Shown here piece after piece: positions 8,953 through 14,676 of a stretch of DNA of 62,078 nucleotides. Below the pieces are notes generated by a model. The model searched no databases and was not told the DNA's origin. It saw only the letters and a program-made list of their open reading frames with translations. Source of the stretch: a virus (lineage: Duplodnaviria > Caudoviricetes); the IMG/VR virus record IMGVR_UViG_3300045425_000063, positions 1 to 62,078 of that record; one strand, written 5' to 3'. How positions within the stretch are numbered: the first letter of the stretch is position 1; every line of letters starts with the position of its first letter. Both the position numbers and the translations under genes were made by a program.

Positions 8953-9296
8953 TTTGAGATACCTTTATAAAGTTTAACTGAATCTTCTCTTAAAGATTTA
9001 TTTTGTAAAATCGCATTATCAACAAGAGAATTTACTGCCTGAACCAAACGTGGACGTTTAACTTTAAAGCAAATATCAATCTTCTTTTTCAATTCTGCAA
9101 TTTCATCATTAGTAGTTGCTTCTTGAATTGCATCTTCGAGCATCCACATACGTGTATGTAAAATAGAAAGTTTTTCTACAACTTCTCCCAAGTTATCAGT
9201 TTCAACATATTGAACATCAGGAAGTTCTCGTTGAGAAAGAACTTCATTAACTGTTTCTTTAATGCATTCATCAATTAAATTTCCAAATTTATTCAT
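8949..9296 (-). CDS. hypothetical helical protein in sugar operon
   Basis: 115 aa, LGEVVEKLSIL...WMLED; overlaps both neighbours. Confidence 0.55.
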   Translation of the reverse strand: MNKFGNLIDECIKETVNEVLSQRELPDVQYVETDNLGEVVEKLSILHTRMWMLEDAIQEATTNDEIAELKKKIDICFKVKRPRLVQAVNSLVDNAILQNKSLREDSVKLYKGISK

Positions 9297-10459
9297 TCCA
9301 ATTCTCCTAAAATTTTGTTAAGTAATTTCATATCTTTATTAGATACAAATTGGTTATTGCCAATATATACTCCATTTTCATGAATTAAATCAGCATTAAA
9401 ATCTTCATTTTTTCCTAAAATTATATAATCTCTAAGATATGGTTGTTTTAATAAATTTCCACCAACAATAGGTCGATATTCAACTCCATATTTTTCAAAG
9501 AGGTTAATCATCTTTTCTTTAATCTCTTTATTTTTACAGATAAATGGGAAACAAAAACAACTATTGCCCTCATTGTATATTACTGGGTAAAAATTTTTAT
9601 TTTGATTGATTATTTTTACAAATATATCATAATTATTTCTACGTTTTGTAATAAAATTATCCAATCTTTTTAATTGTGATAAACCAAGAACTGCACTCAA
9701 TTCAGTATTTCTAAAATTATAACCATCAGAAACAAATAAAAATGATTTTTGAATTTCAGGATACAGTTTAGAATACTCACCAAAATTATTAGAAACTCTT
9801 GCCAAACCATGAGATCTTTTAAGTTTCATCAAATCATAAAGTTCTTCATCATTTGTACTGACCATTCCACCTTCTATAGTGGACATATGATGTCCAAAAT
9901 AAAAACTAAAAGTTGCACCCAAACTATTCCTACCTACCTTCCTTCCATCTGCGTCTAGACATCCATGTGATTCACAAACATCATCAATAAAAAGTGCAGT
10001 AGGAAGAATTTTTTTATATTCTTCAACGTTTGCTGGGATTCCTAACAAATGAGTTACAAACACAACTTTAATATCTGGATTATTTTTAGCAATAATCTTT
10101 AAGTTTGCAATATCAAAACTATAATCATTCAAACTAATATCACAAAAAATAGGAGTCAATCCCAACTGAATGATTGGATTGATATTTGTAACCCATGTAC
10201 AAGCAGGAACTAAGACTTTATCTCCCGGTTGTAAATTATATTTTTCAATGATAGCAGCAATTAAAAGAAAATTTGCAGTACTACCAGAAGTTACAAATAA
10301 AGAATAATCACATCCTAACCACTTGGACCAAGATTTTTCAAATTCTTCTACTTTTTTTCCTTGAGTAAACTTGTCAGAAGTAAGAACAAATTTTGCAAGT
10401 TTAACTCTATCAATAAAAGATAGAGTATTTTTCATTAACGGCCATTTATATTCTAACAT
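9293..10459 (-). CDS. colD: DegT-family PLP enzyme, ColD-type GDP-4-keto-6-deoxymannose 3-dehydratase-like
   Basis: SGSTAN, DDVCESHG and SFYFGHHMSTIEGG (His where aminotransferases have the Schiff-base Lys); start trimmed to MLEYKWP. Confidence 0.7.
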   Translation of the reverse strand: MLEYKWPLMKNTLSFIDRVKLAKFVLTSDKFTQGKKVEEFEKSWSKWLGCDYSLFVTSGSTANFLLIAAIIEKYNLQPGDKVLVPACTWVTNINPIIQLGLTPIFCDISLNDYSFDIANLKIIAKNNPDIKVVFVTHLLGIPANVEEYKKILPTALFIDDVCESHGCLDADGRKVGRNSLGATFSFYFGHHMSTIEGGMVSTNDEELYDLMKLKRSHGLARVSNNFGEYSKLYPEIQKSFLFVSDGYNFRNTELSAVLGLSQLKRLDNFITKRRNNYDIFVKIINQNKNFYPVIYNEGNSCFCFPFICKNKEIKEKMINLFEKYGVEYRPIVGGNLLKQPYLRDYIILGKNEDFNADLIHENGVYIGNNQFVSNKDMKLLNKILGELE

Positions 10460-11390
10460 AATTTCCCCTATTTTTAACAAACCATTCAATAGTAATCTTA
10501 ATTCCATCCTCAAGAGAAGTTTTTGCTTTCCATCCTAAACTATTCATCTTAGAAGTATCCAATGCTCTCCTAGGAGTTCCATTTGGTTTTGTAATATCCC
10601 AAATTATTTCACCATCATAACCAATTTCCTTTGAAATTAATTCAGAAAGTTCCCTGATACTTACTTCTCTATTGGGTCCAATATTAATAATATCTGGATT
10701 AGAATAATTATTCATGAGAAAAATCAAACCATCAGCTAGATCATCAGAAAATAAAAATTCTCTGGTAGGACTTCCATCTCCAAAACAAGTTACGGTATTG
10801 AGATTTTTATCTTTTGCAGTTGCAAATTTATTGATAAAACTTGGGATAACATGACATTGTTCGATAATAAAATTATCATTAATACCATAAAGATTATTTG
10901 GCATAACTGAAACAGTTTCAAATCCATACTGCTCGGTGTATTTTTTACACATCATATATCCAGCAATTTTTGCTAGGGAATATGAAATATTTGTTTCCTC
11001 CAAAGGTCCTGTCATCAAATATTCTTCTTTGATTGGAACAGGTGCTAATTTTGGATAAATGCAGGCAGATCCAAGAAATAAAAGTTTTTTACAACGATTA
11101 CGATAAGCACTGTCAATTACATTAGTTTGAATCTGCAAATTTTCACGAATAAAGTCTGCAGGAACTTGTTTATTATATCCAATACCACCTACTTTGGCAG
11201 CTCCCAAAAAGACATATTCGGGCCTTTCTTCAATAAAAAATTCATCTACATCTTTTTGAATCCGAAGATCTAATTGAGATTTATTTCTGGTTATAATATT
11301 TTTATAACCGTTTCTTTCCAATTGACGGATAATTGCCGATCCAACTAATCCACGATGTCCTGCTACAAAAATTTTACTATTACTATCCAT
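10446..11390 (-). CDS. fcl: GDP-L-fucose synthase / ColC-like epimerase-reductase
   Basis: [36 protein letters not shown]. Confidence 0.9.
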
Positions 11391-12381
11391 AAATGCACAT
11401 ATCCTCAATTAATTGTTCAAATGAAATTTTAGGTTCCCAACCCAGTTTCCATTTTGCCTTAGTGGCATCACCTAATAAGGTCTCTACTTCAGCCGGTCGG
11501 AAATATTTAGGATTGACTTTAATGACCTCATTTCCAGTAAATACATCATATCCAATTTCATTCAATCCATCACCTCTCCACGTAATTTGCATTCCAAAAT
11601 AAGGCGCTGCCTTTTCAACAAACTCACGCACCGAATACTGCTTTCCTGTAGCAATTACATAATCATCTGCTTCATCTTGTTGGAGCATCAACCACATCGC
11701 CTCTACGAAGTCCTTAGCGTGTCCCCAGTCCCTCTTTGCGTTCAGGTTCCCGAGATATAGTATATCTTGTTCCCCAGTTGAAATGCGCGATAATCCTCTA
11801 GTGATTTTTCTTGTGACAAAAGTTTCCCCTCTTCTAGGAGATTCGTGATTGAAAAGAATTCCAGAACTTGCGTGTAGTCCGTAAGATTCTCTGTAGTTTT
11901 TGACGATCCAGTATCCATATAGTTTTGCGACTCCATAAGGTGAACGGGGATGAAAAGGTGTGGTTTCTTTTTGAGGAATCTCTTGAACTTTTCCATAAAG
12001 TTCAGAAGTAGATGCCTGATAAATTCGGGTTTTCTGTTCCATTCCAAGCAAACGAACTGCTTCAAGAATACGAAGAGTTCCAAGAGCATCTACTTGCCCA
12101 GTATATTCGGGTATCTCAAAAGATACTTTTACATGACTCTGGGCACCAAGATTATAAATCTCATCTGGTTGAACTTGCTGAATTATTCTTACAAGATTGG
12201 TAGAATCAGTAAGGTCCCCATAATGGAGGTGAACAGAATTATAAATGTGATCAATACGATCAGTGTTAATAAGGGATGCTCTGCGGATAATACCATGAAC
12301 TTCATAACCTTTTTCAAGCAACAACTCCGCCAAATAAGATCCATCTTGACCAGTGATTCCGGTGATTAAAGCAATTTTCAT
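11383..12381 (-). CDS. gmd: GDP-mannose 4,6-dehydratase
   Basis: [56 protein letters not shown]. Confidence 0.97.
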
Positions 12382-12399
12382 ATAAAGACTGTTTTTAAT

Positions 12400-12437
12400 A
12401 TTATACTAAAAAAGGAGAGTTTATGCAACTCCCCTTT
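12400..12437 (-). promoter_or_regulatory. terminator hairpin overlapping the gmd promoter
   Basis: GGGGAGTT-gcata-AACTCTCC-T6, with TTGCAT-17nt-TATAAT embedded. Confidence 0.65.
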
Positions 12438-12444
12438 GGGTTTT

Positions 12445-12636
12445 ACCAGGCTCGCCACCAATTCTTTAACTGGAAATTGGAAACCAGGCGAGAGAGAGTC
12501 CCATCCGCACCAATTACTTTTGAGAAAAGTAATAAAACAATAGGGTCATATTTGACTCCACCAGTACTTTTAGAGTCTCTCCGTGACTAAAGGGGGTTGC
12601 TCCCGACCAGTGCTTTTAGAGACTCTCCGTGTCTTT
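12445..12636 (-). ncRNA. modular structured RNA, probably related to the wcaG/manA cyanophage motifs
   Basis: Four ~50-nt modules with AAAG-N3/4-UGGU; last module UGGUGCGGA...CUGG...CCAG...GUGGCG resembles wcaG/manA as I recall them; covarying hairpins. Confidence 0.6.
12560..12634. repeat. two 29-nt direct repeats 46 nt apart
   Basis: 12560-12588 ACCAGTACTTTTAGAGTCTCTCCGTGACT vs 12606-12634 ACCAGTGCTTTTAGAGACTCTCCGTGTCT (3 differences). Confidence 0.9.
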
Positions 12637-12643
12637 AGAATTA

Positions 12644-12856
12644 CTATGCTTCAACAGTTTCAAGATCTTGAATGATATAATCGATTAGAATATCATAATT
12701 ATCAAGAGGGTCATCGGAAAAAATAACTCCTTCATTTTGATAAAACTTACGGACTTTCTTGTAAAGTTTCGGATTCTTTACATCAAGATAAAAATCACCA
12801 TTCGCTGCGGCACGAAGTGTTTGAAGATCTTTTTTGAATTTTAAAGTGAGAGACAT
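12644..12856 (-). CDS. hypothetical protein (70 aa)
   Basis: ORF track; own upstream promoter. Confidence 0.7.
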   Translation of the reverse strand: MSLTLKFKKDLQTLRAAANGDFYLDVKNPKLYKKVRKFYQNEGVIFSDDPLDNYDILIDYIIQDLETVEA

Positions 12857-12878
12857 TGTTTTTTAAGTTGACTCTGTA

Positions 12879-12930
12879 ATTATAAAGGATTGAAGTTCTA
12901 TAGTCAAGTAGGACACTTAAAAAAGTGTCC
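12879..12930 (-). promoter_or_regulatory. promoter with upstream 8-4-8 palindrome
   Basis: TTGACT-17nt-TATAAT; GGACACTT-AAAA-AAGTGTCC at 12911-12930. Confidence 0.7.
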
Positions 12931-12932
12931 AA

Positions 12933-13003
12933 TACCTCCAGACGGTGCTGCCCCGTCTTCTGTCCGTTATAAGCAGACGGTTTTACTGATAAACTATGGA
13001 GGC
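12933..13003 (-). tRNA. tRNA-Ile(UAU), non-canonical T-loop
   Basis: GCCTCCA/TGGAGGT acceptor, GTCTG-CT-TAT-AA-CGGAC anticodon arm, GACGG-GGCAGCA-CCGTC T arm. Confidence 0.7.
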
Positions 13004-13010
13004 AAAAGAA

Positions 13011-13181
13011 TCAGCAGCCGTCGTCGTGATTACAAAAAGAATCTTCTTGCTCACATCCATCATACGGAATCATTACTGCATTTCCATATTCACTTGTAAT
13101 GAGAAAAGATTCACCGTTCTCAACTCTTTCTAGTAATTCATCAAAGTGTTTTTGAAAATCTTCTACTGTAAAACTTTCCAT
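13011..13181 (-). CDS. Phd/YefM antitoxin-like small protein
   Basis: MESFTVEDFQKHFDELLERVENGESFLITSEYGNAVMIP; the upstream ATG at 13205 overlaps a -10 box, so start trimmed. Confidence 0.55.
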   Translation of the reverse strand: MESFTVEDFQKHFDELLERVENGESFLITSEYGNAVMIPYDGCEQEDSFCNHDDGC

Positions 13182-13261
13182 TTCTTTTAAAGTTGATATA
13201 GACATTATAAGAGAATTTATAAGAGTTTGAAATTTGACTGTGCCAGTTTCGGAACTGGTAA

Positions 13262-13333
13262 TCCAGAAGGTTGGGATCGAACCAACGTCTTCACCGCCCC
13301 AAACGGTGCCGTCTACCTCTGACTTACTTCTGG
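13262..13333 (-). tRNA. tRNA-Pro(UGG)
   Basis: CCAGAAG/CTTCTGG acceptor, CACCG-TT-TGG-GG-CGGTG, GTTGG-TTCGATC-CCAAC. Confidence 0.9.
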
Positions 13334-13371
13334 TTATTTTTTATATAGTCTTCAATTAATGGAGAAACTAA

Positions 13372-13458
13372 CGGAGAGAAGGAGGGTCGAACTCCTAAGG
13401 GCTTTAACACCTCGACGCTTTTCAAGAGCGTTGCAGTCACCAATCTGCTTGTCTCTCC
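13372..13458 (-). tRNA. tRNA-Ser(UGA)
   Basis: GGAGAGA/TCTCTCC acceptor, ACGCT-CT-TGA-AA-AGCGT, long variable arm, G73. Confidence 0.9.
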
Positions 13459-14115: not shown

Positions 14116-14676
14116 TTACACCATTTCTGGGATGGTGTCAAGTCTAAGTTTAGCATGTACTTCTCTGTGGCAATTAGCACATACGCATATACACTTATCA
14201 AGTTCTTTTTTCTGGTCTTCCCATTTTCTAAGTTTCATATTACCATAATTTTTATCTTTTTGAGTTGGGTCAATATGATGAAACTCTAGTGCATCAATAC
14301 ACTTATCATATCCACATCTTTCACATTTTCCACCTTTATATTCTACTGCTTTTTTCTTACTATTTCTCCATCTATCCGCATTATAATTATTATGACACTT
14401 TTTACAATTTGATTGCCATATTTTTTTATTTTCTCTCCAATACCCAGTATCTTCGGTTAATAAAATAGAACACTTGGAGCAATTTTGTATTGGTCCTTCA
14501 TCAACCTTTAATATTGGATTTGATACATAACCTTCTTTAAATGATTTATTTTCTGTTTTTAAATTGTGTTTTTTTAACCAATATCTAATTGTTGTTGGAC
14601 CTTTATTAGTTATTTTAGATATTTCTCTTATAGACATTTTACTATCTACAAAAGATTTAAGAGTAGAGTAATCCAT
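14116..14676 (-). CDS. HNH homing endonuclease with N-terminal HTH
   Basis: SIREISK...TTIRYWLKK HTH; CERCGY...LEFHH...CANCHREVH HNH/Zn motifs. Confidence 0.85.
   Translation of the reverse strand: MDYSTLKSFVDSKMSIREISKITNKGPTTIRYWLKKHNLKTENKSFKEGYVSNPILKVDEGPIQNCSKCSILLTEDTGYWRENKKIWQSNCKKCHNNYNADRWRNSKKKAVEYKGGKCERCGYDKCIDALEFHHIDPTQKDKNYGNMKLRKWEDQKKELDKCICVCANCHREVHAKLRLDTIPEMV

Follow-up and report, generated by a model that had tools for sequence, protein, structure and literature searches.

A stretch of about 190 nucleotides (nt) on the minus strand of a virus contig, IMG/VR record IMGVR_UViG_3300045425_000063, is best explained as one continuous structured RNA composed of four wcaG-type units. 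We analyzed the whole 62-kb contig (62,078 nt, 34.8% G+C), hereafter the window, and all window features below lie on its minus strand. The last two units, modules 3 and 4 of an initial annotation made from the letters of the DNA, are the full-length known wcaG RNA (RF01761). The first two, modules 1 and 2, are best explained, from shared architecture and slot-swapping, as extra copies of a smaller "type b" variant of the wcaG building block. As for function, we favor control in cis of terminator read-through into the downstream glycan genes, with the same fold serving translational control where units stand alone, and we give this reading a probability of about 0.45.

The identity of units 3 and 4 was established by scanning with Rfam models at gathering level and, across 12350-12750, at E ≤ 10. 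RF01761 matched at 12444-12541 with 96.1 bits, against a gathering level of 42 bits (E 4.2e-17), over model positions 1-98 of 98. The initial annotation had likened the last part of the array to wcaG; by the covariance-model scan this part is an actual full-length member. The match comprises a first hairpin (12533-12513), UGGUGCGGAUGGG…CGCC, the pseudoknot, a third hairpin (12480-12475/12463-12458) and a GUGGCGAG tail. No Rfam family besides wcaG matched 12350-12750 beyond chance level at E ≤ 10.

We then assessed the structure in an alignment of 71 related sequences, using 500 shuffles and slid controls. The wcaG pairs were paired in 93.2% of cells, compared with 35-53% in the slid controls, and 18 of the 22 pairs changed on both sides. 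None of the 500 shuffles reached the observed pairing or covariation score, and one reached the count of both-side changes. The pseudoknot helix itself was paired in 95.2% of cells, with three of its four pairs changed on both sides, so the pseudoknot proposed in the initial annotation is real and conserved. G-U pairs occur within the wcaG helices (25 U:G at one pair, for example), which makes the fold strand-specific and therefore an RNA fold.

Our related loci, cited by L numbers, consist of seven phage loci and 120 IMG/VR stretches, the latter retrieved with the end of module 2 as the search pattern. wcaG was present at 92 bits or more in all seven phage loci, and its setting in the window is typical of this RNA, with gmd downstream and Synechococcus phages as the best phage matches. 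In the record of phage S-SRM01 (L002:1401-1607), a coding sequence (CDS) annotated as "hypothetical protein" overlies the wcaG RNA at 1411-1508 and is probably an over-called gene. An abiF RNA (L080:4-40, 43.3 bits) lies close to wcaG in one locus and a PhotoRC-II RNA (L041:6027-6124, 55.7 bits) was found in another; other small phage RNAs therefore occur in wcaG loci.

The four AAAG-N3/4-UGGU cores from which the array was first recognized are present, ending at 12606, 12560, 12509 and 12457; their periods are 46, 51 and 52. The bare pattern is unspecific: the window has 13 matches to AAAG-N3/4-TGGT, shuffles have 7.08 ± 2.78, and three of 100 shuffles reach 13. Four of the 13 matches fall within 160 nt and the other nine lie outside the array stretch; in a scan with a wider gap, the outlying minus-strand matches were coding-like. 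The named structures also stood up to inspection. Two hairpins, AGAC/GUCU (12634-12620) and AGUC/GACU (12588-12574), differ from each other by a compensated A/U swap and belong to a direct repeat of 29 nt, with 90% identity and a spacing of 46. A perfect 9-bp stem joins 12513-12521 with 12525-12533, and an H-type pseudoknot is formed by CUGG (12487-12484) and CCAG (12473-12470), interleaved with CCAAUU/AAUUGG (12480-12475 with 12463-12458). All four units share one architecture: the crossing loop of an H-type pseudoknot is A-rich and contains the AAAG, and (U)GGU and a small G/C hairpin with a GA come next.

The type-b unit is about 46 nt long and consists of a 4-bp hairpin, an A-rich linker that includes the AAAG of the core, an invariant CUGG plus U, and a small G/C hairpin. 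Module 1 (12592-12634; nhmmer match 12635-12603, E 7.5e-08) has the hairpin AGAC (12634-12631)/GUCU (12623-12620) with loop ACGGAGA, the linker CUAAAAGCAC, UGGU (12609-12606) and a second hairpin GGG…CCC (12604-12592); its loop C12629 pairs with linker G12613. Module 2 (12543-12588; nhmmer match 12590-12558, E 4.2e-08) has AGUC (12588-12585)/GACU (12577-12574) around the same loop ACGGAGA, the linker CUAAAAGUAC, UGGU (12563-12560) and a second hairpin GG-a-GUC…GAC-CC (12559-12543), with loop C12583 paired to linker G12567. Both hairpins of module 2 are kept in a consensus fold of 11 loci. Across the type-b units, the second hairpin takes either of the forms CGGGAG…CCCC or GG-a-GUC…GAC-CC.

Evidence that this unit is a conserved fold comes from a census with a sequence-only hidden Markov model (HMM; nhmmer, E < 0.1), which demanded no pairing and was run over 1.09 Mb. 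It returned 113 matches, 99 of them distinct; only two lie in the window, where the HMM and a tRNA scan revealed no further copies, including after its seven tRNAs. Hairpin pair 6:16 was U:A in 67 units, A:U in 26 and C:G in 6, that is, paired in 99/99. Pairs 7:15 and 5:17 were likewise each paired in 99/99, and pair 4:18 in 87/99 (5 mismatches, 7 gaps). Loop position 2 paired with the linker base 4 nt before UGGU in every unit (C:G 75, U:A 24; 99/99), against at most 31 Watson-Crick pairs in slid controls. Because these hairpin pairs and the loop-linker pair are kept in 99/99 without pairing having been demanded, the type-b unit is a small H-type pseudoknot, with one or several pairs joining loop and linker. 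In modules 1 and 2 all of the covarying pairs are intact. Loop position 5 and linker position -5 form a Watson-Crick pair in 32/32 long-linker units and are A·A in 65 short ones, including both window units.

Some longer-range helices were considered and set aside. Pairing of GACU, the 3' strand of the hairpin, with GAGUC of module 2 is lost when the hairpin changes (CGCC/GGCG in L110, AGAC/GUCU in L096). A helix between module 1 (GGAGAGUCUC) and the loop of the second wcaG hairpin, seen in a single-sequence fold, is conserved neither in L002 nor in the consensus fold of 11 loci. A further helix, in which GGU of module 1 would pair with GCC at the wcaG end, is uninformative, because all of its letters are invariant.

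The kinship between type-b units and wcaG is indicated by exchange of one for the other. In L058 and L082 a type-b pseudoknot occupies the first-hairpin slot of wcaG, and in L008, L010, L029, L054 and L096 this slot holds a middle-sized form with a covarying 5-bp second stem. The four slot-swapped sequences that we scanned all exceeded the Rfam threshold (L010 78.6, L058 78.4, L054 76.4 and L082 50.3 bits). As it replaces the first hairpin in bona fide wcaG matches, type b is a wcaG-type building block. By eye, the 5' flank of ordinary wcaG hairpins also pairs with the loop (GAG:CUC, AGG:CCU, UGG:CCA, CUA:UAG); the first hairpin of the window is ambiguous in this respect. The GGUGGAGUCAA…GACC end of module 2 adjoins a wcaG core in 47 of the 120 IMG/VR stretches, and the arrangement of two type-b units plus wcaG recurs in ten other loci and in L128, a metagenome contig. 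Isolated phages with this array or a close form of it include S-SZBM1, DSL-LC03 and S-SRM01 (loci L006, L001 and L002).

Directly past the array, at 12400-12437, lies what is by layout a composite terminator/promoter of the PeSL type, with predicted activity. The terminator scan identified an 11-bp hairpin (12437-12411) followed by a U run; as read from the sequence, the hairpin loop carries a -35-like TTGCAT (12428-12423), spaced by 17 nt from TATAAT (12405-12400). Our promoter scan left out this site (12428-12400) because TTGCAT matches only 3/6 positions. The arrangement is regular in related phages: a hairpin with a U run was found within 24 nt of wcaG in 55 of 64 distinct copies, and a -10-like hexamer came next in 46 of those 55 (46/64 overall), with TTGCAT or TTGACA in the hairpin loop. 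The first open reading frame (ORF) past wcaG encoded a sugar-nucleotide or glycan enzyme in 42 of 60 cases: Epimerase/GDP_Man_Dehyd in 22, CTP_transf_like in 13, MannoseP_isomer in 3, NTP_transferase in 2 and Glyco_transf_11 in 2. This link agrees with the 2010 description of wcaG, as given in the available part of that paper (PMC2864571).

A cis-acting role is favored because the contexts of these RNAs are ORF junctions, terminators and the heads of glycan gene clusters. We propose that the array forms the 3' end of a short early transcript, running from a promoter at 12907-12879 through a 70-amino acid (aa) ORF into the array. It would stand at the head of the cluster of gmd, an epimerase-family gene and an aminotransferase gene, directly before a terminator that has a new sigma-70 promoter in its loop and tail. 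Depending on the state of the folded array, polymerase arriving from upstream may stop at the terminator or read on into the sugar-nucleotide genes. Possible means are binding of a small ligand, as in a riboswitch, or an action on the polymerase itself, like that of HK022 put and Bacillus EAR. Stand-alone type-b units would use the same fold with another output; the next gene's Shine-Dalgarno sequence lies within their second hairpin. Units 1 and 2 of the window, with no start codon behind them, may be two more copies of the binding fold added to the wcaG leader, and would mark the junction at which related phages have a gene for a membrane protein of about 75 aa.

The promoter assumed for this transcript (TTGACT-17 nt-TATAAT, 12879-12907) agrees with the sigma-70 consensus in 11/12 positions, a consensus match alone, and was the best of nine promoter-like sites in 12200-13400 (shuffle mean 3.3). 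It would start a transcript of about 470 nt that runs through the small ORF and the four units into the terminator.

The regular association with transcript ends also suits a different explanation, which we consider rather unlikely, namely that the array is a trans-acting terminal non-coding RNA. Array and terminator would then form a stable 3' end, possibly cut free from the ORF, and the four folds would bind copies of one host or phage protein. This would cover the processed, multivalent or decoy RNAs suggested in the initial annotation, to which none of our findings points specifically. With wcaG at a transcript end in 55/64 copies and a new promoter following in 46 of the 55, the downstream genes need no wcaG. 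The repeated units have invariant single-stranded letters (CUGGU, and GG in the loop), and short RNA-library contigs from relatives cover the modules. Both wcaG and the units also adjoin tRNA genes; four type-b units begin 1-5 nt past a tRNA 3' end. Against this, no conserved protein partner is encoded beside the array, and a general decoy leaves the 42/60 link to glycan genes unexplained. Moreover, 50 of 97 type-b units sit exactly at gene starts with a Shine-Dalgarno sequence inside, which is a cis design.

That last count comes from a context set of 97 distinct type-b units, picked by a regular-expression pattern that required the hairpin. Next to these units we found an ORF start in 50, a wcaG core in 25, another type-b unit in 19 and something else in 3. 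In 32 of the 50 the ORF encodes the ~75-aa membrane protein, with its AUG 13-19 nt after UGGU, and in stand-alone units before this gene the second hairpin includes GGGAG or GGUGA, which resembles a Shine-Dalgarno sequence. Upstream, 62 of 68 first units have the stop codon of the preceding ORF at -24 to +16 relative to where the hairpin starts, and in 27 of these it is inside the unit. Module 1 of the window has the GGGAG…CCCC hairpin seen in the membrane-protein loci, with module 2 following in place of the AUG; relative to those phages, the ~75-aa membrane-protein gene is missing in the window. Separately, a CA-rich leader (ACACACA.ACACACA, then GGAG) joins the unit to a conserved gene of about 67 aa starting MTPYELRFEIFKQ… in L031, L041, L042, L082, L092, L097, L107 and L123.

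These positions at gene boundaries could instead mean that the units are junction elements of polycistronic mRNA, type b being a device for translation coupling or mRNA stability and units 1 and 2 of the window being roleless leftovers of cassette shuffling. The stop codons near or within the units, the spacing to the membrane-protein AUG, and the replacement of that AUG by module 2 would all be expected, and natural variants differ by whole cassettes, including a joint between 12444 and 12557 that skips wcaG. PeSL cassettes drive such shuffling in T4-type phages, according to the available parts of two reports (PMC4122927, PMC2839356). We nevertheless regard this explanation as unlikely. The array of two units plus wcaG is kept without the gene in the ten other loci and L128, and both window units retain all covarying pairs, which is unexpected for decaying relics.

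The joint mentioned above was seen in two RNA-library runs of one study, whose contigs connect 12557 to 12444, so that the module-2 pseudoknot runs into the pre-terminator sequence without wcaG. With a CUGGU motif on either side, it may reflect recombination between units. Elsewhere, a 274-nt RNA-library contig from a relative (21 other letters, 6 gaps) spans 12448-12635, and the Logan RNA-library contigs X15 and X16, having little or no cover over 12444-12539, are not evidence either way.

Several observations weigh against the cis-acting role or against the kinship of the units. The conserved wcaG core and the terminator do not overlap, and the promoter built into the terminator would express gmd without read-through, which weakens a simple attenuator and lets a plain transcript end fit equally well. 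An antiterminator signal counts as a weak hint in favor of the cis-acting role: the 5' strand of the terminator paired slightly better with its own wcaG, at -9.27 kcal/mol, than with others, at -8.99 ± 0.16 kcal/mol, and 11/300 permutations were as good. The RF01761 model failed to match modules 1 and 2 (12542-12636) even at E ≤ 10, where no other Rfam family matched them beyond chance level, and the type-b HMM gave no match to either half of wcaG in the 1.09-Mb search. Kinship thus rests on architecture and slot-swapping, because the sequence match is not significant in either direction. Pairing in the second hairpin of type b is plausible; its letters are almost wholly invariant G and C, no covariation could be demonstrated there, and the CCC strand is absent in 5 of about 64 CGG-type units. 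Loci were gathered by the module-2 pattern or by similarity to the window, so that the counts do not come from an unbiased sample, and they overstate independent events because related sequences share ancestry. The RNA-library contigs derive from relatives and are no proof of transcription. Finally, the literature found under the name wcaG contains no demonstration of its function, the 2010 proposal being merely repeated.

A unifying idea would be that the wcaG-type pseudoknot of about 45 nt is a free-standing sensing module, reused in one to four copies that all answer to one common signal. It would switch translation of the following gene where its second hairpin bears a Shine-Dalgarno sequence, and read-through into the glycan gene island where arrays precede a terminator. 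Such a signal might be a metabolite tied to sugar-nucleotide supply, or the state of the polymerase or ribosome. We think this improbable; if true, wcaG would consist of tandem copies of a far smaller regulatory unit, as yet undescribed, and this would open a direct way to study an RNA that has been an orphan since 2010.

The initial annotation had also compared the array with type III toxin-antitoxin (ToxI-like) antitoxin arrays and raised an anti-defense role; although a 29-nt core that is 90% identical in two units 46 nt apart, pseudoknotted units and a terminator past the array would suit this, we judge it very improbable and contradicted by gene content, as only two units are near-identical (units 3 and 4 share just short motifs with them), the array is flanked by a phrog_552 ORF and gmd, none of the five neighboring proteins tested matches a PADLOC toxin model or ToxN/AbiQ (a lone weak 30-residue mad1 match lies in a distant ORF), and no Rfam family but wcaG was found.

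The neighborhood of the array best matches T4-like cyanophages (82 phage records, 67 of them Synechococcus phages). In transcription order on the minus strand, the locus contains seven tRNA genes (14907-13262; tRNA search), a Phd-like ORF, the phrog_552 ORF, the array, gmd, an epimerase/dehydratase-family gene and a DegT-type aminotransferase gene. The 70-aa ORF (12644-12856) belongs to phrog_552 (E 3.9e-25) and matched no Pfam family; its stop codon TAG (12646-12644) lies 9 nt before module 1, and in related loci a matching protein tail (…DLE.VEVA*) stands directly 5' of a module. The first gene past the array, gmd (11383-12381), encodes a GDP-mannose 4,6-dehydratase (PF16363, E 3e-154). It is followed by the epimerase/dehydratase-family gene (10446-11408; PF01370, E 5.3e-56) and the aminotransferase gene (9293-10513; PF01041, E 2.6e-58).

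Further upstream, a 64-aa ORF (13011-13205) matches the Phd-like antitoxin family phrog_375 (E 2e-12), with no toxin partner noted nearby. The mad1 match (PADLOC, 30 residues, E 1.5e-06) is in a 186-aa ORF between tRNA genes (14116-14676). Past tRNA-Pro, at 13204-13261, a hairpin CCAGUU…AACUGG precedes a promoter-like TTCAAA-16 nt-TATAAT (13231-13204), which looks like another junction of the terminator/promoter style.

We also searched for type-b units in cellular genomes. Among 185,579 prokaryote species, the strict type-b pattern occurred in two contigs, both from metagenome bins and both with an array of cyanophage type. These contigs, filed under a Neomarinimicrobiota bin (L128:380-760) and a Euryarchaeota bin (L129:600-990), each carry a module/wcaG array. 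L128, the one contig searched, best matches Synechococcus phages; both contigs probably come from phages and were assigned to the wrong organism in binning.

The wcaG motif was described by Weinberg et al. in 2010, where the available text (PMC2864571) places it in T4-like cyanophages, upstream of high-light genes or genes of the exopolysaccharide type. The literature found under its name reports no ligand. The available part of PMC4787817 mentions conserved pairs in the 3' flank of wcaG. In the accessible portions of the literature found on wcaG or cyanophage pseudoknots, the upstream units are undescribed; a 2023 catalog of 8,495 viral candidate RNAs, cited from its available part (PMC10690425), may already include type b in its candidate list. 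Our results narrow this orphan riboswitch candidate in several respects: it is built from tandem copies of a smaller pseudoknot, this unit also stands alone at gene junctions with a ribosome-binding site inside, and the full motif regularly precedes a terminator/promoter cassette heading phage glycan genes. They also provide short, mutable experimental targets, namely a unit of 46 nt in which one tertiary pair covaries. Of note for annotation, Rfam misses the extra type-b units, and at least one phage record has a hypothetical CDS over the wcaG RNA.

Among known systems, ToxI consists of tandem pseudoknot-forming RNA units followed by a terminator; the array here differs in having no toxin gene, just two near-identical units and another gene context. 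HK022 put and Bacillus EAR are cis-acting structured antitermination RNAs that precede terminators, EAR in an exopolysaccharide operon. The array shows no sequence or family match to either, and an effect on polymerase is hypothetical here. Small riboswitches of the preQ1-I type form an H-type pseudoknot from a short hairpin and an A-rich crossing 3' strand, with loop bases pairing downstream and a ribosome-binding site next. The units described here have the same topology, but they match no Rfam riboswitch and occur in arrays of up to four.

The closest comparisons are with elements of T4-type phages. PeSL, the composite terminator/promoter cassettes known from these phages (PMC4122927 and PMC2839356, in their available parts), resemble the present locus in the fusion of a stem-loop terminator to a sigma-70-like promoter, in the variable region rich in small ORFs and in the whole-cassette variants. 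The described cassettes have no long structured RNA in front, whereas a wcaG array regularly precedes the cassette here (55/64). The last part of the array had also been likened to manA (RF01745), a second orphan structured RNA that the 2010 survey reported in T4-like cyanophages and that has similar genes around it. This likeness did not hold: manA was matched neither in the window nor in 25 related loci at gathering level, nor in 12350-12750 at E ≤ 10. The relation to wcaG (RF01761) is direct: a full-length member is present in a cyanophage, in a setting of exopolysaccharide-type genes, and units 1 and 2 share its plan. The Rfam model contains two units, whereas four stand in a row here, and units 1 and 2 are miniatures (a 4-bp hairpin, a 7-nt loop and one covarying loop-linker pair) that escape the model and are also found alone at junctions. 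We therefore describe the array as an RNA already known together with a new form of the unit from which it is built.

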